Part shown: in pieces, positions 15,009-41,633 of the stretch
How the letters are laid out: every line of letters starts with the position of its first letter
Position numbering within the stretch: the first letter of the stretch is position 1
NCBI GenBank assembly: GCA_964636965.1
Contig: CAZWST010000004.1
Span: 1-60,786, forward strand
DNA: 60,786 bases
DNA from: an uncultured Muribaculaceae bacterium
GTDB taxonomy: Bacteria > Bacillota_I > Bacilli_A > RF39 > UBA660
Reading direction: 5' to 3'
The notes under the pieces: generated by a model
What the model was told of the DNA's origin: nothing
What the model saw: only the letters and a program-made list of their open reading frames with translations
Databases searched by the model: none
Made by a program: the position numbers and the translations under genes

Positions 15009-15012
15009 TCTT

Positions 15013-17012: not shown

Positions 17013-17059
17013 TCATATCCTCCTTTACTTTACATATTTAATTATAGCAAAAAAAAAGA

Positions 17060-18227: not shown

Positions 18228-18235
18228 AGTCCCTC

Positions 18236-18631
18236 CTAAAGTTCATAATCTTTTATTTTTACAAGTAATTTGTTAATTGTTTCATCTTTTCCTTCTAATG
18301 GAACATTTATAGAAAAGAAGGTATTATCTTCTGTATCAGTTACTTCTGTTATGAAAATCTTATCTTTATCAAGATCAATTATTTTGTTATCAATTAACAT
18401 CTTCTTTATTGCTTTTGGTGAAATAGACTCAATATCTAAATTAGATATAAATATGGTTGCATTAGTTATTCCATAGCTTGACCATACTTCAACACGATAT
18501 GGTCTGTTATCTTCAAGTGTTCCTTCATTATAACCTATATTACAAACTTCTGTATCACTTGTAAAATCTATTGTGTCTCTTACTATACTTGGATAATCCA
18601 TATAATCACTCCTTAACTTAGGCATTTTCAA
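18236..18631 (-). CDS. hypothetical 131-aa protein (gene 3)
   Basis: ORF overlapping the upstream gene by 14 nt. Soluble, with no recognised motif. Confidence 0.5.
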   Translation of the reverse strand: MKMPKLRSDYMDYPSIVRDTIDFTSDTEVCNIGYNEGTLEDNRPYRVEVWSSYGITNATIFISNLDIESISPKAIKKMLIDNKIIDLDKDKIFITEVTDTEDNTFFSINVPLEGKDETINKLLVKIKDYEL

Positions 18632-18833
18632 TGCTCATTAATATTAAATAAACTTTCTTTAAGTCTTCTTCCTTAACTTTTAAATCTCTTAAAATAGAAT
18701 ATGCCTCTTCCATAGTCATTTCAAAAAAACAATTATCATTTTTTAAAATATTTTTTATTAATGTATATTTTTCTTTATCAACGCTTAATAAATTTTCTGC
18801 TTGGTTTCTTAATTTATCTAACAATTCTATCAC
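18618..18833 (-). CDS. hypothetical 71-aa helical protein (gene 2)
   Basis: ORF overlapping the upstream gene by 20 nt and the downstream gene by 14 nt. Confidence 0.45.
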   Translation of the reverse strand: MIELLDKLRNQAENLLSVDKEKYTLIKNILKNDNCFFEMTMEEAYSILRDLKVKEEDLKKVYLILMSIENA

Positions 18834-20544
18834 CTACGTATCTACTTATCCCTGGTATTTCATTAGAGTTTTGCAAACTTGTGCTATCAATGTAATAGTA
18901 CTCATTGTCACTTAAAAGAGATGTTAATTCTTCAATGGAAACACTTCTTAAATTGTTCTTGCTTTTATTATCAATAACGATATAATGATACTCATTATCA
19001 AATATTGAAACAATTATTACTGGACTTAAATATGATGAATCATTTTTTCTAGCTAAAATATTTACTCTAATATTCTTATTATTTTTAAATAATGTCAAAA
19101 ATAATTTCTTCGTATAGCCAACTAGTTCAAGTCCATCTAAATTCATTCTAGAAATCTCTTTTAATAATATATATACTTTGTCGATTGCAGGTATTTTAGA
19201 ATATTTTAAAGTTAATTTATAAGAATTAAGTGAATCTTGGAAAGTTTTTCTTTCTTCTCTTTTTTCTATGATATCCTTATAAACTTTTTCTGTTAATTCT
19301 TTAAATTTTTGCTTAGTAGTTTTATTTTTATTGATTGAAGTAATATTAACTAATCTATCATTAATCTTAACATTAGTAATGTCACTTGCACTTGGATTAG
19401 CAAGGGAGGAAATAGAAACTAAGTATTCTCCATACTTGAATGTTAATAAATTACCTGCTTCTTCTACACCATTCATGAGTGATTGGTTCAAAGTATAATC
19501 TATTTTTAAGTCAGCTAAAATAGATGCATAAAGAGATATAAAATCATACATTGTAATTTTATTGTTATTAGGACTCTTTTTATTAATATTTTCATTATTC
19601 TCATGTTCAGCAAGTAAGACATCTGTTCTATCCAAATAGTAATTATCATCTAATGAAAATACTTCACATAATTTAATATAATAAAATATTGCTTTTTCTA
19701 AATTAGAATAACTATTATTAATATCCTTATTTAGGTAATCTTCTAAGGGTTCGGATATTTCTATTTTATCGATGATGCTTTCTCCATTTTCATCAATATC
19801 ATTTTTTACTCGATTCTTATTAATAGATTCAAAATCTATTAGTGAATAATTTTTTATACTTTCATATCTTTTAAGAATTTTATCAGAGAAGACATACTTA
19901 ATTGTAATTCTTTCTCTTTCAACGAAGTCAACTAAAGCATAGGCAAGTATTTCTTTGGCATAACCAAAATTGATGTCCCCATTAATAAACTTATTAAATT
20001 CTTCATCACTGCAAGATAGTATACGAAGTAAAACTGAAACAGGGATTTGAAGACATGATTCGTTTATGTAAGTTACATGAATATTATTTCTGTATCTTTG
20101 TTCACAAGAAAATAATACCCAAGAACTTCTTATTACAGCTGAACGCATCAATTCTTTTTTTGATAATTCTTTATTCATTTGATCTAATGCTTCAATGAAT
20201 TCTTTTCTAGTTAGCTTTAATGAAGCAACACTTTTAGAATCTATTATATAATCTATTCTTACTGCAATACCTAGATCATTACTTAAGTTTGTCTGAAGAT
20301 ATCTATACATTCCTTCATCATCAAGCAAGTCATGTATAAGCTTTTTACTTATACTCTTATTTTCTTCAGCATTTATAACTATTAAATCATCGTTTTTATA
20401 TTCTAAAAATAATGATTCATTTTTTAAGATAAGAGAGGAAGCAATGTTTTTTCTAATGGATTGACCAAATTCATTAGCTATCTCTTCTTGAGTATAAAAA
20501 TTTTCTTTATTTAAAAACTTTTCATATTCAAGTCGTGAAGACAT
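18814..20544 (-). CDS. hypothetical 576-aa soluble protein (gene 1)
   Basis: AAGGAGG RBS. The central segment LEKAIFYYIKLCEVFSLD...KITMYDFISLYASILADLKIDY weakly recalls a transglutaminase-like core, but with Met where the catalytic Cys would be. This is a very tentative reading. Confidence 0.5.
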   Translation of the reverse strand: MSSRLEYEKFLNKENFYTQEEIANEFGQSIRKNIASSLILKNESLFLEYKNDDLIVINAEENKSISKKLIHDLLDDEGMYRYLQTNLSNDLGIAVRIDYIIDSKSVASLKLTRKEFIEALDQMNKELSKKELMRSAVIRSSWVLFSCEQRYRNNIHVTYINESCLQIPVSVLLRILSCSDEEFNKFINGDINFGYAKEILAYALVDFVERERITIKYVFSDKILKRYESIKNYSLIDFESINKNRVKNDIDENGESIIDKIEISEPLEDYLNKDINNSYSNLEKAIFYYIKLCEVFSLDDNYYLDRTDVLLAEHENNENINKKSPNNNKITMYDFISLYASILADLKIDYTLNQSLMNGVEEAGNLLTFKYGEYLVSISSLANPSASDITNVKINDRLVNITSINKNKTTKQKFKELTEKVYKDIIEKREERKTFQDSLNSYKLTLKYSKIPAIDKVYILLKEISRMNLDGLELVGYTKKLFLTLFKNNKNIRVNILARKNDSSYLSPVIIVSIFDNEYHYIVIDNKSKNNLRSVSIEELTSLLSDNEYYYIDSTSLQNSNEIPGISRYVGDRIVR

Positions 20545-20630: not shown

Positions 20631-20660
20631 AAAAAAATAGAGTGAAGTTAATTCACTCTA
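20631..20660 (-). terminator. rho-independent terminator ending ABC cassette A
   Basis: 9-bp stem TAGAGTGAA/TTCACTCTA with a 5-nt loop, followed on the minus strand by a run of 7 U. Confidence 0.7.
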
Positions 20661-20726
20661 TTCAAACCATTTAATTAATAGTTTTTTAGGATTGGTATTA
20701 AAATAGAAATTTTAGTCTTTTCCTAT

Positions 20727-21125
20727 CTACTTTTCCGAATCAAGTCCATTATTAATATAAAAAGTTCCACTTATTGCTGCATTTTCGGTCTCATTTAACC
20801 ATTTAGATTTAGTGTCTTTAATTCCTGTAAATGTATACTCACATGGATAACCTTTATTAATTTCTGTTATGCCAAAAAAGTTTTCTCCAGATTTTTCATA
20901 AATTCCAAATGCATTTTTTCTAGAAACTGTGTTAGTTATCCACAATGGTGCTCTTCCAATATAACTTGCCTTTACTGCAGTAGTTAATTTTGCTGTTGTA
21001 CTTGCTTTTGTAATAGTTAAACTTTTACCAGATTGAATAGTTGCTACTTGCGATTTTGCAACTGCTACAGATACTCCAGCAATACTTACACCTACTATAG
21101 TAAGTAATATAAATACCTTTTTCAT
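20727..21125 (-). CDS. small secreted protein (signal peptide plus ~105-aa mature part), last gene of cassette A
   Basis: Start at ATG 21125 with RBS AGGGGGGAA. Signal peptide MKKVFILLTIVGVSIAGVSVAVA followed by KS. No recognised domain. Confidence 0.55.
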   Translation of the reverse strand: MKKVFILLTIVGVSIAGVSVAVAKSQVATIQSGKSLTITKASTTAKLTTAVKASYIGRAPLWITNTVSRKNAFGIYEKSGENFFGITEINKGYPCEYTFTGIKDTKSKWLNETENAAISGTFYINNGLDSEK

Positions 21126-21163
21126 TTTTCTTTTCCCCCCTTCTAGCAAAATAAAAAATTTAA

Positions 21164-22231
21164 TTACGATTTTAATTTTGCAATATTTAATTTATTATTA
21201 ATTGTTCCTATCAACAATAAATTAGCTAATAATTCTATTAAAACAATAGCAATTAAATGTTTATAGCTAAATACTACTTCTATTTTAAGCATTTGCTCTA
21301 ATAGTTTATTTATGGATAAGCTAAATATAATAGCTAGTGATGTAGCAATTATATTTATACTACTAAATCTTTTTAAGATATTAATTTTTATTTTCTTATT
21401 ATAAAATCCAAATATTTTTTCTAACTTAATATTTTTCTTCATATCTGTTAAAATGTTTTTATATATTATAATAATCATTAATAAGAACATTACATTTAAT
21501 ATTAAAATAATGTATGTTAAATATATTAGATATTCTTCTAAATTTTCATAAACAGAAACACCACTTGAGTTGGAAAAAGAAATAACATCAATAAAGTCTG
21601 ATTCTTCTTTTTTTAAATTTAAAAAGTCATTTTCAATTAGCGGTTCATACTTTTCCTTCTTTATTCTAGAAATATATGTATATTTTTTCTCTCGTTTAAC
21701 TATTTCATTAAAAATATTATTTGAAACCCTTATTTCGTTTATTTCTTTTGAATCATATAAGTTTTTTATAGTTAATTCATGGCTACCATAATAATTAATT
21801 ATGATTTTACGTCCGATATATTTTTGAATATTAGGTTTTATATTTTCATAAGTTGTAGAATCAAATCCTAATAGTACTTCATTTTCTTTTAATTCATTAT
21901 TAATATCATTATAGATAATTAAGTTATCAAACCCAGCATTATTAATTTGAAAATTAATTTTATCATCTAATATTAAAACCTCTTTATTATTTGATAATGG
22001 AATAACTAATGCTTCTTGCACGTCTTCTAAATATTCATTTGAAACTAGTTTGTTTTTTAAATCTTTTTGAGTTTTTACTACAAATATAGTTCTCTTGGTA
22101 TATATATCATGGATTGATAATTCTATACCTGTTTTTATTGAATTTAATGTTAGAAGTGTCATAATTATTATCGTAAATACTAGTATATATATGTGTGTAC
22201 TTTTCTTAATAATAAATTCTTTTATAATCAT
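21164..22231 (-). CDS. FtsX-type permease subunit 2 (divergent), cassette A
   Basis: One N-terminal TM, a ~200-aa extracytoplasmic region and three C-terminal TMs. FtsX-like segment KLEKIFGFYNKKIKINILKRF. Starts 3 nt after the upstream permease gene. Confidence 0.6.
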   Translation of the reverse strand: MIIKEFIIKKSTHIYILVFTIIIMTLLTLNSIKTGIELSIHDIYTKRTIFVVKTQKDLKNKLVSNEYLEDVQEALVIPLSNNKEVLILDDKINFQINNAGFDNLIIYNDINNELKENEVLLGFDSTTYENIKPNIQKYIGRKIIINYYGSHELTIKNLYDSKEINEIRVSNNIFNEIVKREKKYTYISRIKKEKYEPLIENDFLNLKKEESDFIDVISFSNSSGVSVYENLEEYLIYLTYIILILNVMFLLMIIIIYKNILTDMKKNIKLEKIFGFYNKKIKINILKRFSSINIIATSLAIIFSLSINKLLEQMLKIEVVFSYKHLIAIVLIELLANLLLIGTINNKLNIAKLKS

Positions 22232-22233
22232 AG

Positions 22234-23502
22234 CTAATCACCTTCATAACGAATTATTGAATTTTTAAATTGTTTTTCTACATAACATATATTAGTTAAA
22301 GATGAAGTGATTCCAATAATTAGTAAACCAATTATGATTATTAAGTAAGGCATAAAATATACTACTCCAATATTAATAAGTTTTTCCTTCATTGATAAAG
22401 AAATAATTGTATTTGTCACAAGTGCAAATAAGATAACGCTTAATGAGCTTATAAAAATTATAAAGAAATTATCAATCAAATAATAAGCTTTTATGTTGTT
22501 TTTTTGATAACCTACGGATGATAGCATACTTATAAAATGAGAATTATTTAGTATTTTTTTCTTTATGTATAATAACGAAATTATAAAAATGCCAATTAGT
22601 GAAATAATACTAACAACAGATAAAATACTTATTAATTTAATTAGATATGACGAAGATACATACGATTTATAATTAACTGAATATCCTAATCTTTCTAATT
22701 CCCTTTTCACGTTAGCAACATTTTTTCTAGAATCTATATGAACAAATAGAGAAGTTACACTTGAAAAGTCTTTTTTGGGTAAGTAATCTTTTATCATTTC
22801 TTCTAATTGCTTACCAGAGATAAAACATTGATTCATTTCAAAATAAGAATTTTTTATATCATAAACTCCTACTATTTTAAATTCTACTGTTTTTTCTCCA
22901 ATTATGATATTTTTTTCTTTTTCTTTATCATATTTTCTAAGATCATACTTACCAGAAATATTTGAATTTAGCAAGGAGTTGCCATCAAGCATCTCTTTTT
23001 TCTCCATTTCTTTATAAGTAATTGATTCTTTAGGAATAATCTTATTTGAACATATAGCTACATTTTCATCATCATATTTTATTTCATGACCCGCAATTAA
23101 ATTAGGTATAGAAGTTTCGGTTCCATATAGCAAATATAAAGTTTCACCCTGATAAGGTCCAATCTTTACATCGTTTATTGCTATCATACTTTCCTTAGAG
23201 GAATATACATCAGTTATATGCTCAATGCTCTTTATTTCATCAAAATTGTAAGCATAATCATTGGTATCGTTTTTTAAGATGTACTTCATCATTTCAGCTT
23301 TGCTAGGTAAAACTATTAAAGTTCTAAAGCTTGTATTTTTGTTAAATTGAGTGTTCAAATTAATGTAATATAAATAAGCCATACATAGAACAATTATAAA
23401 AATTATTGAACACAAACTCATCATCATAATATAATATATATTTTTCTTATCCCTTATATTTCTTTTAAAGATAAAATTAATGTGAGGTAACATTTGTTTC
23501 AT
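22234..23502 (-). CDS. FtsX/MacB-type ABC permease subunit 1, cassette A
   Basis: Topology TM1, a large extracytoplasmic domain, then 3 TM. FtsX motif ISMLSSVGYQKNNIKAYYLIDNF. ATGA overlap with the ATPase gene. Confidence 0.75.
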   Translation of the reverse strand: MKQMLPHINFIFKRNIRDKKNIYYIMMMSLCSIIFIIVLCMAYLYYINLNTQFNKNTSFRTLIVLPSKAEMMKYILKNDTNDYAYNFDEIKSIEHITDVYSSKESMIAINDVKIGPYQGETLYLLYGTETSIPNLIAGHEIKYDDENVAICSNKIIPKESITYKEMEKKEMLDGNSLLNSNISGKYDLRKYDKEKEKNIIIGEKTVEFKIVGVYDIKNSYFEMNQCFISGKQLEEMIKDYLPKKDFSSVTSLFVHIDSRKNVANVKRELERLGYSVNYKSYVSSSYLIKLISILSVVSIISLIGIFIISLLYIKKKILNNSHFISMLSSVGYQKNNIKAYYLIDNFFIIFISSLSVILFALVTNTIISLSMKEKLINIGVVYFMPYLIIIIGLLIIGITSSLTNICYVEKQFKNSIIRYEGD

Positions 23503-24188
23503 TTTTTCACCTCTACTATATTCTTATCATCTAACTCATATAAGACATCTGCATATTTTTTTACTTCATCACTGTGAGAAACTACAATAATACACTTACC
23601 TTCTTTGCTTAGATTTTTTAATAGTTCAAATATTTTCTTTTCATTTGTTTTATCTAAGTTTCCTGTTGGTTCATCGGCTATTATTATATCTGGGTTATTT
23701 GCAAGGGAGCGCGCTATTGCAACTCTTTGTTTTTCTCCTCCACTTAACTCTTTTGGAAAATGATCATATCTATTTTTTAAATCTACTTTATCTAAAAGGC
23801 TTATAGATATTGCCTTCATATCTTTTTTGTATATTCTTTTATTTATTAACATTGGATACATGACATTTTCATAAGCTTTTAAGTATTCATCTAAGAAATA
23901 ATCTTGGAATACAAATCCAATTGTGTCTCTTCTTAATTCTGCTAATTCATTATCGCTTAATTTTGATACATCATTTTTGTTTAATAAATATGTCCCATCA
24001 GTTGCTTGATCAAGCAACCCTATAATATTAACTAGTGTTGACTTGCCTGAACCGGAGTGTCCCATGATTGCATAAAACTTTCCTTTTTCAAATGATACAT
24101 TTAGACTATCTAATACTAGTAGGCTTCTTTTTTTCATTTGATATAATTTTCTTATTTTCTTTAATTCAATTACTTTTTGTGCGTGCAT
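23499..24188 (-). CDS. ABC transporter ATP-binding protein (MacB/LolD-type), cassette A
   Basis: Walker [11 protein letters not shown]-loop FVFQDY, signature [14 protein letters not shown], Walker [13 protein letters not shown]. Confidence 0.9.
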
Positions 24189-24282
24189 TTTTATTTCTCG
24201 CTTTCTAACTCAATCATACTAATACTATCTATTATTTGTCACGTCGATTTTTCCGACATTTTTTGAAGTCAGAGTTTTGTTA

Positions 24283-24312
24283 CAAAAAAAATAACAGATA
24301 GTGTCTGTTATT
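24283..24312 (-). terminator. rho-independent terminator after the XRE regulator gene of cassette A
   Basis: Stem AATAACAGA/TCTGTTATT with a 5-nt loop, overlapping the stop codon and followed on the minus strand by a U-run. Confidence 0.6.
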
Positions 24313-25381
24313 TAACATATTCATTATATAATTCAAAAAACTCATTTGCTAACTCTGACCCATTCTTTGTTTCTATTATTTCCATCGAAACCTCATCACC
24401 TTCATATTTTTTATAAAATAGAGAATCATATGCTATATGATAATTCCAAGTCTTACTATAATTCAAATAATCTTTTTTTAGAATGAATAAACCAGCATCA
24501 GGAAAATATGTCATTGTCATATTAAAATAATCCATTTTCTCCTGATATCTATATGAATCATTGTTGTATGTGAAATTATTTAGTATTTTTTCTGGAATAT
24601 CTGGATCATGATATTTTACTTTATCATTTTTTTCACTTATATTTTCTTTATTTTTAAATAATATTTTATTATTTTCATAATCCTTTATAACATTAAGATT
24701 TATTTCCTCACTTTCTTCACCATAATAAATTATTAATTGCAAATTCATTTTGTCTTTTACTATATCGTCATAGTTAAAATATTCTTCGTAATTATAAAAG
24801 TCAGCTAGATATATTGATTTTCTGTTTGAATTTTTAACAACTAATTTTTTATCATTACCTGAATTTTGGTATAGCGATATGCTTTTTATTTTTTTATCCT
24901 TAATTTCTTCTACGCTTATACTAAAATATATTTTTTCTTTTGATGCAATAAGTAATCCTTCATTGGTTTTGAAATTACTGCTTGCTCCCTCAACTTTATA
25001 GACTTTAACTGAATTATACGAATTAAAAAAATAATATGATAGAAAGATAATAATAAGGGCAACACATATTAAGGTAATTGATGTAATCATTATTTTATAT
25101 TTTGACTTGATACTTTTTATAGAAAAGTTGTTTATTTTCTCGATTGTTTGGTTAATAACTTCTTTTTTATATTTTCCACCATTGTATATATCTAATACTG
25201 TAACTCCAAAAATATTTGATAGTATTAAGGCACGATCTACACTAAGTTTTATCTTTCCATGTTCAATATCAGAAAGTCCATTTCTACTAATATGTATAGA
25301 ATTAGCTAATTCTTCCTGTGTTATTCTTTTTGTTTCTCTTAGTTCTTTTATATATTTACCAATTTCTTCATCAGAAACCAT
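24308..25381 (-). CDS. membrane-tethered XRE-family HTH regulator with large extracytoplasmic C-terminal domain, cassette A
   Basis: HTH_3 motif IKELRETKRITQEELANSIHISRNGLSDIEHGK, a single TM (ITSITLICVALIIIFLSYYFF), then a ~230-aa C-terminal domain. Start placed at ATG 25381. The track start at 25417 is a TTG. Confidence 0.75.
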   Translation of the reverse strand: MVSDEEIGKYIKELRETKRITQEELANSIHISRNGLSDIEHGKIKLSVDRALILSNIFGVTVLDIYNGGKYKKEVINQTIEKINNFSIKSIKSKYKIMITSITLICVALIIIFLSYYFFNSYNSVKVYKVEGASSNFKTNEGLLIASKEKIYFSISVEEIKDKKIKSISLYQNSGNDKKLVVKNSNRKSIYLADFYNYEEYFNYDDIVKDKMNLQLIIYYGEESEEINLNVIKDYENNKILFKNKENISEKNDKVKYHDPDIPEKILNNFTYNNDSYRYQEKMDYFNMTMTYFPDAGLFILKKDYLNYSKTWNYHIAYDSLFYKKYEGDEVSMEIIETKNGSELANEFFELYNEYVK

Positions 25382-25481
25382 ATAACCACGTCTTTTCTTT
25401 ATATCTTTATAATACAACTTTTTATAACGAGTGTCATTCTTTTTTATAAATCATTTGACCCCCGCTTTTTTCCTTTTTTAA

Positions 25482-25518
25482 TAAAAAAATAACAGATATG
25501 ATATCTGTTATTTTTTAT
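25482..25518 (-). terminator. rho-independent (bidirectional-looking) terminator after the fused ABC gene
   Basis: 11-bp stem AATAACAGATA/TATCTGTTATT with a 3-nt loop, flanked by an A-run and a T-run. Confidence 0.7.
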
Positions 25519-28058
25519 TCTGATCTTAGTGCTTCTACTGGATCTTTTTTGCTTGCCATTCTTGATGGTATTAATCCAGCTAGTAAAGTTAAGATTATGC
25601 TTATAATTATTAATATTATAGCTCCAACATATGGTAATGAAGCTATACCGCTTATATTAAGTGCACTTTTTATTATAGCATTTACTGGTATATTAATTAA
25701 ACATGTTACTAGTATACCCATAATACCTGCGCATGCTCCTTCGATTAAAGTTTCTGCATTGAACACTCTTGAGATATCTTTCTTACTTGCTCCGATAGCT
25801 CTTAAGATACCAATCTCTTTTGTTCTTTCAATTACTGATATGTAAGTAATAATTGCAATCATGATACTTGATACAATTAAGCTTATTGCAACGAAGGCGA
25901 TTAAGACAGTTGAGACAACATTGACAATGCTAGATACAGAGGACATCATTAGTCCAAATACATCTGTATATTGTAATTCATCGTCTTCATTTTTTCCTTT
26001 ATTATATTCATGAATTATATCTGTTATTTTTTCCTTAGCATCAAAGTCACGAGGATATATATTAATAGAATCAGGATTATCTAAATCAGCAATTCCCAAT
26101 TTTGTTAAATTTTGTTCATAAGTAGAAGATGCAAAACTAGACATTGTTTCCATATAAGATGCAAGTTCTTCTTTACTCATTTTTTGAATTGCAGCTAGTT
26201 GTTCTTTTGATAAGTCACTCATATCAAATGAGGATGCATCACTGAATTTTTTGCCAGTGAATATATTTTTCTCTTTATTATTTAATTGGTCTTTTGCTAT
26301 TTCAGTTTTATTAATTTCCTTAATCATTTTTTCCCATAAGGCGTGAGTATAACCAACAAGACCATAACCAGAGTCTGATACAGATTCTTCATTAGGTTTT
26401 ATAATTCCAACTACTTTAAGTTCATCAGCACTTTTTAAAACTTTTTTCATGTAGTCTTCATCATTACTTTTATCAATCCATACTCCATTACTCTTTTTAT
26501 AAAAATCTGTATTTAAAACTAATTTATATTTTAATCCTAATAAGTCGTCTTTTGTAAAAGTTTTATTTTCAAATTCAACTTTTGATCCACTGACCATATT
26601 ATTAAATTGTTTTTTTAATTCATCTTGATCAAGAAGACCTAAGCTATAAAGAGTATAATCTGATAATTCATTATTACCATTTAAAATTATTACTAATTCA
26701 TTGTATTCTTTTGGCCAAGAACCTGCAACTAAATCGAACTGTCCTTCATTAAACTCTTGATTATCAAGAAGTTCAGTAAATACATCATAGTTAGACATGT
26801 ATCCTGAATATACACTTGAAACACCATCTGTTCCCATACCTATTGCGTCAAGTACGGTTGTTGGATTTACTCTTTGTACTTTCTTTTCATCATCTTTATA
26901 TAGATTTAATTGAATATCATAACCATAAACAATATCAGTTACATAATCGTTTATTTCTTTTTTGTCATTTTCAATATATTTTTTGAATGATGCTAAATCG
27001 TTTACTTTAACATCCTCAGTAATACTTGAGAACATATCTCCCATAATATTCTTAGAGTGAATTAAATCATCATTGTATTTAACTTCACTGTCGGCATCCA
27101 TAAAAGAAACAAGCATACTAGATATATCTACAGATTCTTTTGAGATAGTTAATGGATATGAACCTAATGTTTCTTTCTCTGTTTTATTAATATAATTTTG
27201 AATACCATTAGATAATGATAAAATAAGCGCAATACCAATTATACCAATAGATCCTGCAAAAGCAGTTAAAATAGTTCTTCCTTTTTTTGTCATTAAGTTA
27301 TTAAGTGAAAGTGATAAAGCAGTTAAGAAACTCATCTTGCTTTTCTTTGATTTTTTGTTATCTTTCTTTTCTTCTTTTCCATCAAAAGGATTTGAATCAT
27401 CAACTATTTTTCCATCTAATAATTTAACTATTCTTGTAGAGTATTTTTCTGCAAGTTCTGGATTATGAGTTACCATTATAACTAATTTATCTTTAGCTAT
27501 TTCTTTAAGTAAATTCATTACTTGGATACTAGTCTCTGAATCTAATGCTCCAGTTGGTTCATCTGCAAGTAATATATCTGGATCATTTACAAGTGCACGT
27601 GCAATTGCGATTCTTTGCATTTGTCCACCGCTCATTTGGTTTGGACGTTTATTCATTTGACGCTCTAATCCAACTTTTTTTAATACAGCAATACTTCTTT
27701 TTCTTCTTTCGGATTTACCTACACCAGATAAGGTAAGAGAAAGTTCAACAATTTGTAGTGATGTTTGATGTGGTATTAGATTATAACTTTGAAATACAAA
27801 ACCAACACGATGATTACGATATATATCCCAATCACGATTTTTATATTTCTTTGTTGAAATACCATTAATTATTAAGTCTCCTTTAGTATAATTATCAAGT
27901 CCACCAATTATATTTAACATAGTTGTTTTACCAGAACCTGACTGTCCTAAAATAGAAACAAATTCATTTTCTCTAAATTTTATAGAAACATTATCTAAAG
28001 CTTTTTGTGTTAAACCAGCTGTATTATAAACTTTAGATACACTTTTTAATTCTAACAT
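25515..28058 (-). CDS. fused ABC ATPase plus FtsX/MacB-type permease (847 aa)
   Basis: N-terminal ABC domain with GQSGSGKTT, MSGGQMQRIAIARA and LLADEPTGALD. This is followed by a TM, a ~420-aa extracytoplasmic domain and a C-terminal FtsX 3-TM bundle (IGILRAIGASKKDISRVF). Confidence 0.9.
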   Translation of the reverse strand: MLELKSVSKVYNTAGLTQKALDNVSIKFRENEFVSILGQSGSGKTTMLNIIGGLDNYTKGDLIINGISTKKYKNRDWDIYRNHRVGFVFQSYNLIPHQTSLQIVELSLTLSGVGKSERRKRSIAVLKKVGLERQMNKRPNQMSGGQMQRIAIARALVNDPDILLADEPTGALDSETSIQVMNLLKEIAKDKLVIMVTHNPELAEKYSTRIVKLLDGKIVDDSNPFDGKEEKKDNKKSKKSKMSFLTALSLSLNNLMTKKGRTILTAFAGSIGIIGIALILSLSNGIQNYINKTEKETLGSYPLTISKESVDISSMLVSFMDADSEVKYNDDLIHSKNIMGDMFSSITEDVKVNDLASFKKYIENDKKEINDYVTDIVYGYDIQLNLYKDDEKKVQRVNPTTVLDAIGMGTDGVSSVYSGYMSNYDVFTELLDNQEFNEGQFDLVAGSWPKEYNELVIILNGNNELSDYTLYSLGLLDQDELKKQFNNMVSGSKVEFENKTFTKDDLLGLKYKLVLNTDFYKKSNGVWIDKSNDEDYMKKVLKSADELKVVGIIKPNEESVSDSGYGLVGYTHALWEKMIKEINKTEIAKDQLNNKEKNIFTGKKFSDASSFDMSDLSKEQLAAIQKMSKEELASYMETMSSFASSTYEQNLTKLGIADLDNPDSINIYPRDFDAKEKITDIIHEYNKGKNEDDELQYTDVFGLMMSSVSSIVNVVSTVLIAFVAISLIVSSIMIAIITYISVIERTKEIGILRAIGASKKDISRVFNAETLIEGACAGIMGILVTCLINIPVNAIIKSALNISGIASLPYVGAIILIIISIILTLLAGLIPSRMASKKDPVEALRSE

Positions 28059-28074
28059 ATTTATCCTCCTTATA

Positions 28075-33416: not shown

Positions 33417-33490
33417 AGAGGATTGGTGTAATGGTAACATAGGAGTCTCCAAAACTTTTGCTGGGAGTTCGATTCTCTCATCCTCTGCCA
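33417..33490 (+). tRNA. tRNA-Trp (anticodon CCA)
   Basis: AGAGGATTGGTGTAATGGTAACATAGGAGTCTCCAAAACTTTTGCTGGGAGTTCGATTCTCTCATCCTCTGCCA. It has acceptor stem AGAGGAT/ATCCTCT, anticodon loop CTCCAAA, T-loop GTTCGATTC and an encoded CCA. Confidence 0.9.
33446..33490 (+). repeat. attL: 45-bp direct repeat (3' part of tRNA-Trp)
   Basis: TCTCCAAAACTTTTGCTGGGAGTTCGATTCTCTCATCCTCTGCCA is identical to 41933-41977. Confidence 0.9.
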
Positions 33491-34454: not shown

Positions 34455-34874
34455 TTAGTCACTACCTGAAGTTGATTTACTAGTAAGTATGTACTTAGCA
34501 TTTGCAGTAGAACCTGATTTATCATTTACTGAAGTAATAAGATAATCTTTTTTAGCAGTTTGCTTTGAGTAATAAACATAGCTATTATTATTTCCACTTA
34601 TATCAGTAGATCTAACTCCAACATTTTCGAATCCTAGTCCAAGATAAGCCTTTTTAGATAAGGTAACTCTTAGAGTAGAACTTTCACTATTTTGAGCAGT
34701 ATATTTTACGTATGGATAACTAGCTTCAAGCTTTGCATAACTTGATCTATTCCATTGCCCATAAGTTAGTGAAAAATTACCAGAAGCAGTAGCTGCTGCA
34801 AATACTGTTGTAGCTGTAATTGATAATACAACTGCAAGTGTAGTAATCGCTTTTTTTCCAATATTTTTTCTCAT
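34455..34874 (-). CDS. small secreted protein (signal peptide plus ~110-aa Ser/Thr-rich beta-type mature part), last gene of cassette B
   Basis: Signal peptide MRKNIGKKAITTLAVVLSITATTVFAAA. ATGA overlap with the upstream membrane protein gene. Confidence 0.55.
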   Translation of the reverse strand: MRKNIGKKAITTLAVVLSITATTVFAAATASGNFSLTYGQWNRSSYAKLEASYPYVKYTAQNSESSTLRVTLSKKAYLGLGFENVGVRSTDISGNNNSYVYYSKQTAKKDYLITSVNDKSGSTANAKYILTSKSTSGSD

Positions 34875-35677
34875 ACTTTATAAGACCTCCTTCCTATTAT
34901 CAAACACATAGTTACAAATAATGTTACTATTATTAGTAATATGTGGATAACTAAATTAAAACAATGATTTACTCCTAGGTAATTTTTTATTACCAATTGA
35001 AGAATCCCATTCGATAGCACTATGCTTAATATTAAAGATAGTACTTTTATTACGGATATAATTGTAATTTCTTTTAAATTAAAACCTAAACAATAATATA
35101 AATAGTTATATTTTTGTTCATCTAATAAGATATTTATGATAGTTATTAGATAAATGATAAAGCTAATAATTATTATTAATATTAGCATATAGAAAAAATA
35201 ATTATAATATTTTTCTATCTTACTATCATTTTCTTTATTTATAAATATTTCATATTCGATTCTATTTTTCATGAAAAAATCAACCATATCATTATAAACT
35301 TTCCAATTTTTTAATATTATATAGTATTCATTATTATATTCATAAATATTAAAATCTTTTTTTGAAATTATTTCTATATTATTATCTTTTTCAAAAAAAT
35401 CATTATCTTCATGTTCCACTATAATTTTATTATCCATAGTTATGCATTTTAGTAATACTTTTATGTTACTGTGATTTTTCAAAAGATCATATTTATCTTT
35501 ATCATCTAAAACTACAGTAAAATATGATTTTTTATAATTATCATTTAATATTTTTCCCCCATAGATATAAAAAGTAGTTGCAATTGTAATAATAAAAATA
35601 ATAGAAAAAATAATAAAAATATAATTCCGTGTAGTCTTTTTATGAATAAATTCTTTTAATAATATTAAATATTTCAT
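34871..35677 (-). CDS. FtsX-type permease subunit 2 (divergent, short), cassette B
   Basis: N-terminal TM, a ~120-aa external region and three C-terminal TMs. FtsX-like YYCLGFNLKEITIISVIKV. ATGA overlaps on both sides. Confidence 0.55.
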   Translation of the reverse strand: MKYLILLKEFIHKKTTRNYIFIIFSIIFIITIATTFYIYGGKILNDNYKKSYFTVVLDDKDKYDLLKNHSNIKVLLKCITMDNKIIVEHEDNDFFEKDNNIEIISKKDFNIYEYNNEYYIILKNWKVYNDMVDFFMKNRIEYEIFINKENDSKIEKYYNYFFYMLILIIIISFIIYLITIINILLDEQKYNYLYYCLGFNLKEITIISVIKVLSLILSIVLSNGILQLVIKNYLGVNHCFNLVIHILLIIVTLFVTMCLIIGRRSYKV

Positions 35678-36873
35678 AATAAAATCCTACTTAAGTTTTC
35701 TTCTAATTTTCGATTTAGTACTTTTTTATTTACAACAATTAAGAAAATTAACATTAAAATGATAGTTAATATAACTGGTATAACTGAAAATTTCAGTATA
35801 GTACCATCATATATATATTCTGCAAAATAAATATCTTTAATGTAGTTAAAAACAATAATGTAAAGGATTATTGAAACAATCCAACTTATAATAAGTAAAA
35901 AAGCATTCTCAATAAAGTCGATAGTTCTAATTGTTTTTTGATTATATCCAATGGATTTTAATATTGCATATGATCTACAATTATATTTTATTTTTTTAGA
36001 TAAATAAGATTCCAAAACTATACAAAATACCAAGATAATAATTATGGATGCAAAAATGGGAACATATGTTAACAAATTAACGTATCCTTCATTTAATTCA
36101 GAAGATGGCTGAGAATATAATCCTATTTTAGATATTTCTTCTTGAACATTTTTAACATTTTTATAACTATCAACTATAGCAAGTTTTCCTGTGTATTCTG
36201 TTGGGACAAAAACCATTTCTCCAGTTTCCTCATTATATTTTGTTGACCCACCATTATATTTGGGTGCAATCTTTTTAAAAACATCTTTGGAGATATAACA
36301 ACTATTTAGGTAATTATTATTTTTTTCTGAATTATATGTACCAACTATTTTGAAAGTAAAAGTTTTGTTATCTTCTGATATAACATCAAAGCTTTTGTCA
36401 ATTATATCTTCGGCATACATTAGTCTATTTTTATTGAATATGGTTTTTCCATTAATTTCTTCTATTTCGTAAGGAAAGAAAACATCCGAACATATTGCCT
36501 CATTTTCCTCTTTAGCCATTTTTCCATTTGTGACTATTAAACTTTTTTTATCAAGTATAGGATTAAGAGAAATTTCCCCTTGTAAATCAGTGCTAAATTC
36601 TTTAACTTCAGCAATCAGTGGGTTTTGATAAATAGTATCTTCAACTTCTATAATGTGTTTAATTTTTTCTAACTGATTATATTTGTCTGAGTCGCCATTT
36701 ACTATTAAAGTTCGAAAACGAGAGTTATTGTTATACAGAGTTTCTTTTAGAGTAAAAAATGTTGAACCTATTGAAATTGTGAGCATCATTACTATACTTA
36801 TAAGGAAGAAAATGATAAACAAAATAACATTTTTTGAGGTAAGTATATGTTTTCTTAAATAATTAAAGTACAT
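35674..36873 (-). CDS. FtsX/MacB-type ABC permease subunit 1, cassette B
   Basis: TM1, a large external domain, then 3 TM. FtsX motif YAILKSIGYNQKTIRTIDFIENA. Start ATG 36873 lies 1 nt after the ATPase stop. Paralogous to 22234-23502 (for example RFRTLIV versus SFRTLIV). Confidence 0.75.
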   Translation of the reverse strand: MYFNYLRKHILTSKNVILFIIFFLISIVMMLTISIGSTFFTLKETLYNNNSRFRTLIVNGDSDKYNQLEKIKHIIEVEDTIYQNPLIAEVKEFSTDLQGEISLNPILDKKSLIVTNGKMAKEENEAICSDVFFPYEIEEINGKTIFNKNRLMYAEDIIDKSFDVISEDNKTFTFKIVGTYNSEKNNNYLNSCYISKDVFKKIAPKYNGGSTKYNEETGEMVFVPTEYTGKLAIVDSYKNVKNVQEEISKIGLYSQPSSELNEGYVNLLTYVPIFASIIIILVFCIVLESYLSKKIKYNCRSYAILKSIGYNQKTIRTIDFIENAFLLIISWIVSIILYIIVFNYIKDIYFAEYIYDGTILKFSVIPVILTIILMLIFLIVVNKKVLNRKLEENLSRILL

Positions 36874-36874
36874 A

Positions 36875-37537
36875 TTACACACCTTCTTCCAAATTAACAA
36901 TTTCATCTGCGAAGGTTTTTATATTATCCGAATGGCTAACAACAATTACACATTTTCCATTTTTTGATAATTCCTTTAAATCATTTAATATAATTTCTTC
37001 GTTCTTTTTATCCAAATTACCAGTTGGTTCATCAGCTAGAATTATATTAGGATTATTGATTAAAGCTCGGCAAATAGCAACTCTTTGTTGTTCTCCGCCA
37101 GATAATTCCTTAGGATAATGTTTTAATCTTTTGTCTATTTTATATTTCTTAGTCAATTCAATTATGTCATTTTTTCGTTCTTTCCAATTTTTGTTTAATA
37201 AAGTTGGTAGGAGAATGTTATCAAAAACATTTAGGTGTTCATCTAGTAAATAATCTTGGAAAATAAAACCTATTTTATTATTTCTTAGTTTAGATTGTTC
37301 TACTTCTTTTAATAAAGATATACTTTTCTCTTCAATAAAAATATCGCCTTTATCTGGTTTTTCTAACATACCTATTAATTTTATGAGAGTTGATTTTCCG
37401 CATCCTGAGTGTCCTATAATCCCATATAATTTTCCATACTCGAAAGAGTAATTAAAATTTTTAAACACTTCTATATTTTCATCGTGTGCAAAAAACGATT
37501 TATATAAGTTTTTTATATGTATGGCATTTTTCTTCAT
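36875..37537 (-). CDS. ABC transporter ATP-binding protein, cassette B (paralogue of 23499-24188)
   Basis: [52 protein letters not shown] and GKCVIVVSHSD. The same motif blocks occur in the cassette A ATPase. Confidence 0.9.
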   Translation of the reverse strand: MKKNAIHIKNLYKSFFAHDENIEVFKNFNYSFEYGKLYGIIGHSGCGKSTLIKLIGMLEKPDKGDIFIEEKSISLLKEVEQSKLRNNKIGFIFQDYLLDEHLNVFDNILLPTLLNKNWKERKNDIIELTKKYKIDKRLKHYPKELSGGEQQRVAICRALINNPNIILADEPTGNLDKKNEEIILNDLKELSKNGKCVIVVSHSDNIKTFADEIVNLEEGV

Positions 37538-37548
37538 ATTTCGCTTCC

Positions 37549-38283
37549 TTATACTAATTTTACTGAAACACCCTTCATACAGTCATAGTAAGATTGTATT
37601 CCTGTATTAAAACTAAAGACTCCACCAATTCCCGATTTTGAAAAGGAATATTTTTTACTATTTGCATAAGAGATATTTTTCTTGGCATGTTGATAACTTG
37701 CTTTTATATTTCCTTTTTTTTCAACAATTAGTGTTTGAGCAATCTTTAAATATGTCACATTTGTTGGTAATTTAAATGAAGTTCCAATACCATCTGTTGA
37801 TTTATTAGTGTAATTATAGTAACTTTTACCATTATTTGTTTCAATTGTGACATCACTAATATTTATTGCAGAAGTGTTCTCTAAATAAATTCCAAGTATA
37901 TCATAACTTCTAATAGTTGGAAGATTAATCCAGTTTAATGAAATTGATACTAGGCAGTTAGATGAACAAGCTGTGCTCATCTTTAATGATTTATTAGTTG
38001 TTGTATGTTCTGATACTGAGAATAAACTCATGACATTATCATCAATTTCAACAGAATTTATTTCATTCTCAAATAAGCCATTATTTTTTAGGAAATTAAA
38101 ATCTTCATTAGATAAATTATTTTGATATCCCTCCCAATAAAATTCACTTATTTTGTCATATTCTTGTTTAGTAAATGAAACTCCGTTACTATTTTCATAG
38201 TACAATTCTTGTGCATTTACACTTTCAATTACACTTCCAATAAACAAACTTGCAATAATTGTCATAATGTATATTTTTTTCAT
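37549..38283 (-). CDS. secreted hypothetical protein (244 aa), present only in cassette B
   Basis: Start ATG 38283 with RBS AGAGGAAG. Signal peptide MKKIYIMTIIASLFIGSVIESVNA followed by QE. No recognised domain. Confidence 0.5.
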   Translation of the reverse strand: MKKIYIMTIIASLFIGSVIESVNAQELYYENSNGVSFTKQEYDKISEFYWEGYQNNLSNEDFNFLKNNGLFENEINSVEIDDNVMSLFSVSEHTTTNKSLKMSTACSSNCLVSISLNWINLPTIRSYDILGIYLENTSAINISDVTIETNNGKSYYNYTNKSTDGIGTSFKLPTNVTYLKIAQTLIVEKKGNIKASYQHAKKNISYANSKKYSFSKSGIGGVFSFNTGIQSYYDCMKGVSVKLV

Positions 38284-38343
38284 AACTCTTCCTCTTTTCT
38301 GAGTATACCATATCATAAAATCAATATAAAAAGGGAGTTCCTG

Positions 38344-39471
38344 TTAGGAACCCCCTTTAGAAATATTATTAATTATTGAATTTAAACTACTAATAATCGA
38401 ATTATTACAAGTTGTTTTTTTGGAGTCATTTTCATCATAGTAACATTCTTCAACATTATTTAAGTCGCTGTCACTTTTTTTATAAAGAGCATTTTTATAT
38501 CTTAAATCATAGTTAATAGAATAATTATAAAAATTTTTGTCCCAAGATATTAAAAGTGAAGATGTATCCTCTATATAGTACACATCATAAATAATCTTAT
38601 CTATTCTCATTTCTTGATGATATATTCCATTTTCTTCATATTTTAGATTTTCTTTTATAATATTTATTAAATCATTTTTTATAGTCTTATTATCTTGGGA
38701 TTGCTGAATTGAGATATTTTTGTCTTTCTTAAAAAATAATTTTTTATTTGAATAATCTTCTTTTATTGTTAAGTCAAAAGTCATTACTTCATCCTTGGTA
38801 TTTATATCCAAATATAAAGTATCAAAAACCACGTTTTTATTTTTTATTTCAAAATACTCATTATAACCATAATAATCCCGTATTAGACTATCCTTTGTCG
38901 AGGTATCTTCATATATTATTTTTTTAGAATTATCTTTTTTATAATATAAAGTGATTTTAGAAATTTTACTACTATCTATACCATTTATATTTCCTAATCT
39001 AAAATATATATTTTCCCTAGTTAAAATTAGTATACCATCAGACAAGTAAATATTATCCTTTTTGGATTCAACCAAATATATTTTTACGGAATCATAAGAA
39101 TTAAAGAAATAATATGACAAAAAAGCAACTATTGCTACTACAAGCAAAATTAAAGATGATAATAGAATCTTTGATGTCTTCTTTAATTTTTTATTGATAG
39201 CATTTCTGTCATCAAATATTTGTAAAGAAACTTCTTTAATTTCTTTTTCATTTTCTTTTGTTTTGAATTCTCCATACATTATTTCATCAATTGAAACATT
39301 GAATATCTTACTAAGTCTTAAAATAGTGGAAGAGTCTGGAATAGTATGTCCATTTTCCCATTTACTAATAGCTTCTCTATTAATAGGAATCTTTTCTGCT
39401 AAATCATTTTGACTCATATTATTCTCTTGTCTTAGTTTTTTTATAAATGCACCAATCTTTTCATTATCCAT
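38344..39471 (-). CDS. membrane-tethered XRE-family HTH regulator, cassette B (paralogue of 24308-25381)
   Basis: HTH IKKLRQENNMSQNDLAEKIPINREAISKWENGH and a single TM (LLSSLILLVVAIVAFLSYYFF). The post-TM sequence FNSYDSVKIYLVES matches FNSYNSVKVYKVEG in the paralogue. Start ATG 39471 with a GAGGTGA RBS. Confidence 0.75.
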   Translation of the reverse strand: MDNEKIGAFIKKLRQENNMSQNDLAEKIPINREAISKWENGHTIPDSSTILRLSKIFNVSIDEIMYGEFKTKENEKEIKEVSLQIFDDRNAINKKLKKTSKILLSSLILLVVAIVAFLSYYFFNSYDSVKIYLVESKKDNIYLSDGILILTRENIYFRLGNINGIDSSKISKITLYYKKDNSKKIIYEDTSTKDSLIRDYYGYNEYFEIKNKNVVFDTLYLDINTKDEVMTFDLTIKEDYSNKKLFFKKDKNISIQQSQDNKTIKNDLINIIKENLKYEENGIYHQEMRIDKIIYDVYYIEDTSSLLISWDKNFYNYSINYDLRYKNALYKKSDSDLNNVEECYYDENDSKKTTCNNSIISSLNSIINNISKGGS

Positions 39472-39496
39472 AATATCACCTCGGTTGACATAAAAT

Positions 39497-39706
39497 CTAT
39501 TCATTATTTATTATATAAATATTTTTATAAATCACAGATAAAGGAATAATTTCGTTTCTATATTTATTCAAAAAAGAAAGAAATTTAAATTGTTTTGTTT
39601 CTGTATCTAAATCTTTCATTATGTCGTTTATTATATCTGAACTGATTTTTAAATTGTCTAATTGTTTTAAAATCATTACCTCTAATTTAGATAACATCAT
39701 GTTCAA
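39497..39706 (-). CDS. hypothetical 69-aa protein
   Basis: Small ORF with a GGAG RBS, lying between the traG-like gene and the regulator gene. Confidence 0.35.
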   Translation of the reverse strand: MNMMLSKLEVMILKQLDNLKISSDIINDIMKDLDTETKQFKFLSFLNKYRNEIIPLSVIYKNIYIINNE

Positions 39707-41629: not shown

Positions 41630-41633
41630 TTTG

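Follow-up and report, generated by a model that had tools for sequence, protein, structure and literature searches.

The locus considered here raises the question of what a membrane-tethered regulator, one ATP-binding cassette (ABC) ATPase, two different permeases and a small secreted protein accomplish together. The five genes, referred to as cassette A, lie on the minus strand of contig CAZWST010000004.1 (assembly GCA_964636965.1). The window is the whole analyzed stretch of this contig, 60,786 nucleotides long; coordinates of cassette A are those of the whole window, and labels of the L0xx type denote relatives recovered from databases. Cassette A is a rare five-gene module of low-GC gut Firmicutes, so far undescribed. 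As judged from its sequence, it most likely represents a bacteriocin-plus-self-protection or antimicrobial-resistance unit.

According to the preferred reading, to which a probability of about 0.4 is given, cassette A combines a Sec-secreted ~12-kDa cationic beta-sandwich effector, a heteromeric type VII ABC immunity machine and a transmembrane one-component sensor. In type VII ABC systems, cytoplasmic ATP hydrolysis moves extracytoplasmic domains and does not carry substrates across the bilayer (PMC11466899). The small protein would be a bacteriocin-like, envelope-binding effector. A single ATPase, presumably dimeric, would drive two non-identical permeases with four transmembrane (TM) helices each (perm1 and perm2) by type VII "mechanotransmission", and the large external domains of the permeases would be specific to the cassette type. 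The perm1/perm2/ATPase complex could recognize the small protein at the outer face of the producer membrane and dislodge it by ATP hydrolysis, in parallel to the freeing of lipid-II-cycle targets by BceAB. The pairing itself would parallel the lactococcin-972 loci, where a MacB-type ATPase and a membrane protein resembling FtsX are encoded with a Sec-secreted beta-sandwich bacteriocin. The XRE-family sensor could detect an envelope or extracellular cue by its external domain of ~240 aa and control the promoter of the ATPase operon from the membrane. The antimicrobial activity of the small protein, the mechanism of immunity and the direction of regulation are all putative in this scheme.

Transporter core and secreted partner

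The ATPase of cassette A retains intact Walker A, signature and Walker B motifs. Among NCBIfam families it is closest to LolD (E = 8e-66; 221.7 bits, cut-off 307.75) and L_ocin_972_ABC (E = 3e-60; 203.2 bits, cut-off 254.85), followed by MacB (3e-57) and FtsE (3e-56), all of these matches being below the family cut-offs. The first permease, perm1, matches Pfam FtsX with 29.1 bits (above the cut-off of 25.5) and shows a 1+3 arrangement of TM helices in hydropathy analysis. The profile of its family aligns with B. subtilis YtrF (PDB 9o9x_C) at E = 3e-13 over nearly the full length.

The second permease, perm2, is more divergent. An initial annotation of this DNA had regarded the 355-aa protein as FtsX-like, and a structure model bears this out. 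By hydropathy, perm2 also has 1+3 TM helices with a large loop after TM1, and a conserved motif after TM2 (D..K..L....G[FY]) is in keeping with the expectation for an FtsX domain. The Pfam FtsX score is 15.8 bits (E = 0.015), below the threshold, and four of the 11 family members match at E ≤ 1. Since the perm2 profile had no match among PDB sequences even at E ≤ 10, and since hhalign aligns the N-terminal 59 columns alone with perm1 (probability 2.9%), the FtsX assignment rests on the structure model. The AlphaFold2 (AF2) model, built from an 11-sequence alignment, includes a long TM1, an extracytoplasmic beta-alpha-beta domain and three long helices. Its predicted local distance difference test score (pLDDT) is 57 overall, 58-84 in ten-residue blocks of TM2-TM4 and below 50 in the middle of the external domain. 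In the Foldseek search with this model all of the top 20 PDB matches were type VII ABC permeases (MacB, FtsX, Spr0695, LolC/E, YbbP). The best match, MacB, reached E = 6e-5 and probability 1.0; TM-scores were 0.3-0.4, and BceB and HrtB stood lower in the list. Nearly all of the significant matches were to MacB/FtsX/LolCE structures. With moderate confidence, perm2 can be assigned an FtsX/MacB-type fold, the support extending to the fold class and not to its details. Cassette A belongs to the type VII (MacB/FtsX) systems by the clade of its ATPase, by the sequence and topology of perm1 and, with moderate confidence, by the structure of perm2. The gene content points to a putative perm1/perm2 heterodimer.

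The system is rare. The exact 355-aa perm2 protein is not in the indexed protein collection, and a word-indexed search of 5.8 billion proteins returned two matches to perm2 with the single sequence and 11 with the profile. A metagenome scan with a narrower perm1 alignment found one 2.5-kb contig. Genomic contexts were gathered from homologues of perm2, the small protein and the regulator and annotated with hidden Markov models (HMMs) built for this analysis; the metagenomic contigs are short and the system itself is rare, which limits the survey of relatives. Within these limits the layout proved to be conserved. The ATPase-perm1-perm2 core was found in about 12 locus types: cassette A with L001; a second cassette of the window (cassette B); L002 with L007-L011; L003; L012/L022; L015 (with one identified permease only); L020; L025; L026; L004/5/6/27/29; L042; L045; and L047. 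The small protein is encoded in all but one of them, and the regulator gene adjoins in most. The sources are metagenome contigs and metagenome-assembled genomes (MAGs) labelled as uncultured Bacilli, Mycoplasma sp. CAG:877, Firmicutes bacterium CAG:582 and Erysipelotrichaceae. They were obtained from the gut of humans, mice, rabbits and ruminants, and their GC content is 23-27% throughout. The relatives belong to Firmicutes, as indicated by the neighboring genes ezrA, spoIVA, spoIIIAH and gerM.

In L007 (1-11668) and L008, one regulator gene is followed by three tandem cassettes, the third of which has an ATPase remnant of 65-75 aa; L002 and L009-L011 are partial. ATPases 1 and 2 of L007 are 100% identical, and the ATPases of this lineage share 78-100% identity. 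The perm1 proteins accompanying the two identical ATPases share 36% identity, the perm2 proteins 35% and the small proteins 29%. Cassette types pair alike across perm1, perm2 and the small protein: A with L7_2 (55/50/68% identity) and L7_1 with L7_3 (51/40/44%). Because identical ATPases are combined with sets that are 29-36% identical, the motor is generic and the specificity unit consists of perm1, perm2 and the small protein. This co-variation argues for physical recognition of the small protein by the external domains of the permeases, and it lends indirect support to a possible perm1/perm2 heteromer.

Each ATPase gene of the L007 array, the remnant included, is preceded by the same leader of ~120 bp with a GC-rich hairpin and a T-tract (AGGAGGGGAGAAATTCTCCCTCCCTTTTTT). 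Such uniformity points to a recent duplication, or to a gene conversion, that included both the ATPase gene and its leader; the leader hairpins possibly serve for attenuation. In L003 (6053-6743, MAG GCA_011262095.1), the ATPase gene is split by a frameshift into open reading frames (ORFs) of 95 and 154 aa, and the genes of the small protein, perm1 and perm2 are intact. The split gene could be either a genuine pseudogene or the result of an assembly error.

The small protein of cassette A has a cleavable signal peptide, which ends with VAVA before the residues KS. Its counterpart in cassette B cannot be aligned with it pairwise (BLAST E = 98), and the two are united by profile search only. The profile of five cassette-linked small proteins retrieved 17 proteins of 77-148 aa (alignment A4, 16 sequences). 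An exhaustive HMMER scan of 1.84 billion representatives gave 25 matches at E ≤ 1e-3. Of these, 19 are stand-alone proteins with lengths of 126-144 aa; two fragments measure 68 and 115 aa, and three matches to long proteins (516, 1576 and 3719 aa) are probably spurious. Common features of the family are a signal peptide, the motif NT.QRK...G and, at the C-terminus, the motif W.N.T..S...A.F. The signal peptides are of the signal peptidase I type, ending with VAVA, VFA or FAA, and contain no lipobox, since no Cys occurs at or just after the predicted cleavage site. The mature proteins (109-125 aa, isoelectric point 8.7-9.7, net charge from +2 to +7) are rich in Ser, Thr and Asn and predicted to be all-beta. 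They contain at most one Cys (none in 5/7), and their conserved residues do not look catalytic. The AF2 model of the small protein has eight strands. With this model Foldseek gave only generic beta-sandwich or jelly-roll matches (nucleoplasmin-like, CBM16/22, PirA, YPM) at E ≥ 2.7e-3, which were not used for assigning a function, and the family profile had no match among PDB sequences. Homology to a secreted family of ~240 aa described below was rejected, as the signal peptides alone align.

The initial annotation had grouped the small ORF with the transporter, and the relatives uphold this grouping. All family members with a readable context adjoin an ATPase-perm1-perm2 set (cassettes A and B of the window, L001, L002/L007-L011 with three tandem copies, L003, L012/L022, L020, L025, L026, L042, L045 and L047). 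The small gene usually stands last. In B-type cassettes it overlaps the perm2 gene by 4-8 nt and is therefore translationally coupled to the transporter. It is located upstream in L003 and L012 and is divergently transcribed in L026. In the lineage L004/5/6/27/29, ATPase, perm1, perm2 and regulator genes occur without the small gene, with 37 bp between the perm2 and regulator genes; in L047, a sister of this lineage, the small gene sits exactly in that gap. A further B-type cassette, which has no regulator gene, is found in L042 (1841-7399) directly downstream of an ABC exporter with a C39 peptidase and two short ORFs. At least one of these ORFs encodes a GG-type leader (MEIRENELCNITGG, followed by AIKIAG...), which marks a classical class II bacteriocin locus.

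Regulator, gene junctions and neighborhood

The regulator was annotated initially as a membrane-bound one-component helix-turn-helix (HTH) protein with a single TM helix and an external domain of ~230 aa. This description agrees with the present data: an N-terminal HTH domain (Pfam HTH_3, E = 9e-12) is followed by a single TM helix by hydropathy (aa 97-115 of 357) and by ~240 external residues. The juxtamembrane motif SYYFFNSYNSVKVYKV is invariant in the family alignment A7. The external domain has no match in Pfam, NCBIfam or PDB sequences, the PDB profile search covering the HTH region only, and comparison with perm1 and with the secreted family of ~240 aa revealed no homology. The regulator, ectodomain included, is encoded in ~19 GTDB species genomes. 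Among plasmid records, neither perm2 nor the regulator ectodomain has a homologue.

The spacer of 119 nt between the regulator and ATPase genes holds a sigma-70-like promoter, GTGACA-18-TATGAT, which matches at 10/12 positions in the promoter scan. Since the surroundings are AT-rich and show no enrichment of promoter-like sites, it is a candidate only. Its -35 element directly adjoins an inverted repeat (TGTCGGAAAAATCGACG), which occurs nowhere else in the window and is kept in L001 as TGTCGAAAAAATCGACG. This repeat could represent an operator, both the promoter and the operator being putative.

Homologues of the regulator adjoin most of the split-FtsX loci, either ahead of the ATPase gene or behind the perm2 gene, and some of them accompany other systems. 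In L019 (1376-5972), the regulator gene is followed by genes for a 744-aa protein with 2x(1+3) TM helices (bact_immun_7tm, E = 4e-11), an ATPase that passes the L_ocin_972_ABC cut-off (267.4 vs 254.85 bits) and signal peptidase I; a bacteriocin gene is not evident in this locus. The "7TM immunity protein" of L019 looks like a fusion of two FtsX-type modules with four TM helices each, and it may be a fused counterpart of perm1 and perm2; hhalign comparison with the perm1 and perm2 profiles reached probabilities of just 2.7% and 23%, respectively. In L013, the regulator gene lies beside genes for two secreted proteins and an ABC system whose ATPase most resembles the lantibiotic-protection subfamily. 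Around the relatives of the regulator, the recurrent theme is ABC-type self-protection combined with secreted antimicrobial proteins or peptides.

The commonest neighbor of the regulator gene is a gene for a secreted protein of ~240 aa, located directly downstream. This "SYQHA" family is characterized by an N-terminal EIYYTN.NGV.LT motif and by the invariant motifs W...P..RS.D..G, SYQHA and YD.M.GV. Its members are encoded in the window (37549-38316, minus strand) and in L013, L014, L016, L017, L021, L023, L025 and L028, often without an ABC cassette nearby, and cassette A does not contain this gene. Pfam, NCBIfam, PHROG and PDB sequence searches gave no match for the family.

The five minus-strand ORFs of cassette A occupy exactly the positions given in the initial annotation (Table 1). 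Of the coupled junctions described there, the ATGA overlap between the ATPase and perm1 genes stands, and the supposed 3-nt gap between the perm1 and perm2 genes is actually 2 nt (TAG-CT-ATG). The terminator ascribed to the regulator gene was found as a hairpin with a U-tract after the stop codon. The gap of 38 nt between the perm2 gene and the small gene is free of hairpins, and the small gene starts with an ATG after a strong ribosome-binding site (GAAGGGGGG). In comparison with L001, a locus of 97-99% nucleotide identity, the ratio of nonsynonymous to synonymous substitution rates (dN/dS) is 0.12 for the ATPase, 0.20 for perm1, 0.32 for perm2 and 0.07 for the small protein; these values identify all four as real, constrained genes.

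Table 1. Coordinates of cassette A, its predicted signals and the paralogous cassette B in the window
Feature	Position	Strand	Details
Regulator, membrane-tethered XRE-family one-component	24308..25381	-	357 aa from ATG; 369 aa from alternative TTG at 25417
Terminator-like hairpin with U8 tract	24285..24313	-	Directly 3' of regulator stop; -8.3 kcal/mol, z = -2.6 (folding)
Candidate promoter of ATPase operon	24213..24258	-	-35 GTGACA, 18-nt spacer, -10 TATGAT
ABC ATPase, MacB/LolD/FtsE type	23499..24188	-	229 aa; ABC_tran E = 1e-31
perm1, FtsX-type, 4 TM	22234..23502	-	422 aa; extracytoplasmic domain of ~245 aa between TM1 and TM2
perm2, divergent, predicted FtsX fold, 4 TM	21164..22231	-	355 aa; extracytoplasmic domain of ~195 aa
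Small secreted protein	20727..21125	-	132-aa precursor, 109-aa mature, isoelectric point 9.4, predicted all-beta; previously unnamed family
Operon-ending terminator hairpin with U7 tract	20631..20663	-	-13.8 kcal/mol, z = -5.6; 0/200 shuffles fold as well
Cassette B, paralogous	34455..39504	-	
Cassette B regulator	38344..39504	-	
Cassette B additional secreted protein	37549..38316	-	255 aa
Cassette B ATPase	36875..37537	-	
Cassette B perm1	35674..36906	-	
Cassette B perm2	34871..35677	-	
Cassette B small protein	34455..34874	-	

The initial annotation also reported recurrence of the whole architecture at 34455-39471. The paralogous cassette does exist and all of its components match the family HMMs. 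The layout is not identical, as cassette B has the additional 255-aa gene and no internal terminator. Cassettes A and B share 34% identity in the regulator, 48% in the ATPase and 26% in perm1 (E = 5e-23); the similarity of their perm2 proteins is weak and restricted to the C-terminal TM region. The perm2 and small genes of cassette B overlap by 4 nt. Horizontal mobility, suggested at the same time, is weakly supported by the differing genomic neighbors of the cassettes and by genes of the integrative conjugative element (ICE) type near cassette B. Apart from the AT-richness that membrane genes usually show, the composition provides no evidence of an island.

The genes around the two cassettes are as follows. 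A direct repeat (24276-24300 and 25474-25498, 88% identical; AATAACAGA..TATCTGTTATTTTTTT) consists of near-identical terminator hairpins bracketing the regulator gene of cassette A; one of them terminates the upstream gene of an 847-aa protein and the other the regulator gene. The repeat could be a footprint of insertion of the regulator gene or the cassette. The 847-aa protein, a fused ABC ATPase-FtsX protein (FtsX, 68 bits), is encoded directly upstream of cassette A (25515-28746, minus strand) and represents a third FtsX-type system; its gene is preceded by that of a DUF3267 putative zincin peptidase. Downstream of cassette A (13794-20544) are found an endolysin-like GH25 gene (13794-15008), a truncated FtsK/SpoIIIE-like ATPase gene (252 aa, 17469-18227) and unmatched ORFs, which look like a remnant of a mobile element. 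A 576-aa protein of this region (18814-20544) has no family match; synteny of its gene is conserved in L001, and the gene is equipped with a promoter-like site and a ribosome-binding site of its own. Cassette A was rejected as cargo of a prophage or ICE, PHROGs naming just the endolysin and the FtsK-like fragment among the scanned downstream genes and the compositional signal being absent. Beyond cassette B (39757-53921) there are genes for a VirD4/TraG coupling protein (39757-41154), a CHAP-domain protein (46490-47515), an SLT-domain protein (52620-53921) and a DUF2207 membrane protein. Together with tRNA-Trp (33417-33490), they are consistent with an ICE or its remnant. A radical SAM/SPASM protein (269 aa) and a 185-aa ORF without a family match, which are encoded by overlapping genes within 29873-31217 (minus strand), may form a peptide-maturation pair similar to those for ribosomally synthesized and post-translationally modified peptides. 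An ssNA-helicase RNA motif (Rfam RF03070; 47.3 bits, gathering score 41.5) is located at 7249-7297 on the plus strand.

Possible functions of cassette A

The reading of cassette A as a bacteriocin with self-protection is favored by the linkage of the small gene to the transporter, which is strict in this direction but not in the reverse one, by the co-variation, by the arsenal-like tandem arrays, by the translational coupling of the small gene in B-type cassettes and by the bacteriocin-type neighborhoods. The lineage without the small gene would match the "orphan immunity" pattern of the scb loci (PMC11796350). A number of observations weigh against it. The small proteins of A and L7_2 are 68% identical, above the 50-55% of the permeases, and the small protein has the lowest dN/dS of the operon (0.07); a toxin engaged in a rapid arms race would not be expected to evolve so slowly. 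The terminal position of a toxin gene in the operon is unusual for bacteriocin loci. No member of the small family has an annotated function, the small proteins of A and B have no Pfam or NCBIfam match at E ≤ 1 (bacteriocin models of lactococcin_972 included), and the structure model has a pLDDT of 54.6 with generic fold matches at E ~3e-3 and worse. In L003, the ATPase gene is frameshifted and the small gene intact, for which an error in MAG assembly could be responsible. In L042, the class II bacteriocin itself could be what the transporter protects against, the small protein then being an accessory.

The main alternative, somewhat less probable than the preferred reading, is inducible resistance or detoxification against exogenous envelope antimicrobials (peptides, competitor bacteriocins or host defensins), where the small protein is an extracellular accessory. 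In this case, the XRE protein would sense the compound or the damage, the ABC complex would clear the compound from the membrane surface or protect its target, and the small protein would, for example, capture or present the compound, being YxeA-like in position. A membrane-bound XRE regulator adjoining an ABC system follows the logic of BcrR (PMC10269533), type VII ABCs of Firmicutes include YknYZ, which acts against SdpC, and the target-protecting Bce type (PMC11466899), and L019 provides a regulator homologue beside an ABC system with no obvious toxin gene. Strong purifying selection on the small protein, the existence of a lineage working without it (L004/5/6/27/29) and the position of the L042 cassette after a class II bacteriocin export locus, whose immunity system it could be, agree with resistance as well. 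The presence of a highly divergent small protein in nearly every cassette type, co-varying with both permeases, is hardly explained in this way, and neither is the loss of the small gene in one lineage only; moreover, no Pfam or NCBIfam family, that of YxeA included, matches the small proteins. The same co-variation would suit an FtsEX-like mechanotransmission device, an improbable possibility in which the external domains of perm1 and perm2 bind the small protein and switch its activity or location for envelope remodeling, without any antimicrobial action. An FtsX/MacB fold is assigned to perm1 and, with moderate confidence, to perm2; YtrF, which among solved structures is nearest to perm1, is part of a system associated with cell wall stress; and the external domains of FtsEX-PcsB, FtsEX-CwlO and FtsEX-EnvC are as a rule specific to their partners (PMC11466899). 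However, the small protein has no coiled coil, hydrolase domain or conserved catalytic residues, and a rare, patchy, multi-copy distribution with diverged tandem arrays is typical of conflict systems and atypical of housekeeping ones. The strict linkage of the small gene to the transporter could also be explained by a LolCDE-like release system: after Sec export the small protein would remain at the membrane until the heteromeric ABC complex extracts and frees it. This is very improbable. One ATPase with two different FtsX-type subunits and LolD as the top NCBIfam match of the ATPase agree with release; on the other hand, the ATPase falls short of the LolD cut-off, the transporter is retained in one lineage that has no small gene, and the signal peptides are ordinary ones of the signal peptidase I type, the lack of a lipobox Cys leaving the small protein without an anchor after cleavage. 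An anti-phage defense role was rejected, PADLOC giving generic ATPase and HTH matches alone.

The reading of bacteriocin plus self-protection could be extended, quite tentatively, to the whole family of loci. The small proteins would then form a new class of Sec-dependent ~12-kDa jelly-roll bacteriocins, and the heteromeric type VII ABC would provide "target-protection" immunity, its two type-specific external domains recognizing the cognate toxin. Tandem arrays with one generic ATPase and one regulator would be swappable arsenals of toxin and immunity, and the single-pass XRE protein would represent a new family of extracellular-protein or envelope sensors that also controls immunity transporters of the Lcn972 and lantibiotic types.

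If the preferred reading is true, cassette A adds a heteromeric MacB/FtsX-type ABC machine with two permease genes that comes from a monoderm, lies outside the Lol systems and has a genetically defined protein partner, and recognition of an extracellular protein by a type VII ABC becomes directly testable. If the small proteins are antimicrobial, they are a new source of narrow-spectrum agents from uncultured gut bacteria. Whatever the function, three families without a Pfam or NCBIfam model are at hand (the small secreted protein, the sensor ectodomain and the "SYQHA" protein), and the identical ATPases with divergent permease/partner sets constitute a natural experiment for specificity mapping.

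Comparison with known systems

Neither the searched literature nor Pfam, NCBIfam, PADLOC, PDB sequences and plasmid records yielded a characterized counterpart of cassette A. In the initial annotation the two-permease layout had been called LolCDE-type and unusual for Gram-positive bacteria. The gene content fits the former claim, with one ATPase, two different genes for proteins of predicted FtsX fold and coupled junctions. The latter is in agreement with the inventory of B. subtilis, where all five MacB-type systems are modelled as homodimers (PMC11466899), which makes a two-gene heteromer in a Firmicute unusual.

The likeness to LolCDE includes the two non-identical permeases with four TM helices, a predicted FtsX fold and large external domains, the LolD match of the ATPase, and the LolC and LolE chains among the structural matches of perm2. 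In contrast to LolCDE, cassette A is not accompanied by LolA, LolB or a lipoprotein substrate. Its identification as LolCDE was rejected by the TIGR02211 score (221.7 vs 307.75 bits), the Firmicute contexts (EzrA, SpoIVA, SpoIIIAH) and the lack of a lipobox.

The homodimeric MacB-type systems (YtrEF, YknYZ, FtsEX, YclHI, YvrON) belong to the same fold class, and perm1 aligns with YtrF over its full length. YknYZ gives resistance to the secreted toxin SdpC (PMC11466899). With only one permease gene each, these systems are described by models as E2X2 homodimers (PMC11466899), whereas the permeases of cassette A are two and align with each other at the N-terminus only. The MacB-type systems differ also in the type of regulator (YtrA is of the GntR type) and in having no cognate small secreted protein.

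The BceAB-BceRS and YxdLM-YxeA modules resemble cassette A as type VII ABCs with a ligand-specific external domain, a dedicated sensor-regulator and proposed target protection. YxeA is a small secreted protein encoded together with the Bce-type YxdLM of B. subtilis. However, Bce permeases are single polypeptides with ten TM helices and one external domain and are combined with two-component signaling (PMC11466899), whereas in cassette A the permease is divided into 4+4 TM helices in two genes, the sensor is a one-component membrane protein and BceB is a weak structural match only. Cassette A is not a Bce module, given the two permease genes with four TM helices each and the absence of an adjacent histidine kinase or response regulator.

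With BcrR, ToxR/ToxS, TcpP/TcpH and CadC the regulator of cassette A shares a membrane-tethered DNA-binding domain that controls, or in cassette A would control, the adjacent operon. BcrR is the closest of these in being of the XRE type and controlling an ABC transporter. The BcrR-like logic proposed earlier is sustained by an XRE HTH domain joined to a TM segment and by the ABC operon that adjoins the regulator gene in most locus types. BcrR itself spans the membrane with four TM helices and is not known to carry a large external domain. The likeness would therefore be functional, since the number of TM helices differs and the external domain of ~240 aa is extra. ToxR, TcpP and CadC differ in their winged-helix domains. 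ToxS and TcpH are similar in position only, many regulator homologues having a secreted protein encoded directly downstream.

The closest parallel to the whole module is offered by the lactococcin-972 loci (lcn972-orf2-orf3 of pBL1 and scbABC of S. pneumoniae). In these loci, the membrane protein and ATPase that accompany the Sec-secreted, lipid-II-binding beta-sandwich bacteriocin are regarded as immunity genes (PMC4055356, PMC11796350), the roles of both being not experimentally verified (PMC11796350). A secreted beta-sandwich protein (predicted in cassette A), an FtsX-like membrane protein and a MacB-type ATPase are common to both; L_ocin_972_ABC is the second-best family for the ATPase, and a regulator homologue stands beside an Lcn972-type ABC pair in L019. 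Unlike the bacteriocin of 66 aa, the small proteins of the cassettes have ~110 aa in the mature form and lie outside the lactococcin_972 family. Where those loci encode one protein of ~650 aa with 7-8 TM helices, cassette A has two genes for proteins with four TM helices each; its secreted protein is encoded last, in reverse of their gene order, and its regulator is a transmembrane XRE protein. Identification of cassette A as an Lcn972 locus was rejected, as the models lactococcin_972, bact_immun_7tm (TIGR01654; no match of perm1 or perm2 at E ≤ 1) and L_ocin_972_ABC (TIGR03608) all fail. By analogy, the module would come closest in function to an Lcn972 arrangement with a split permease, controlled by a BcrR-like, architecturally different sensor.

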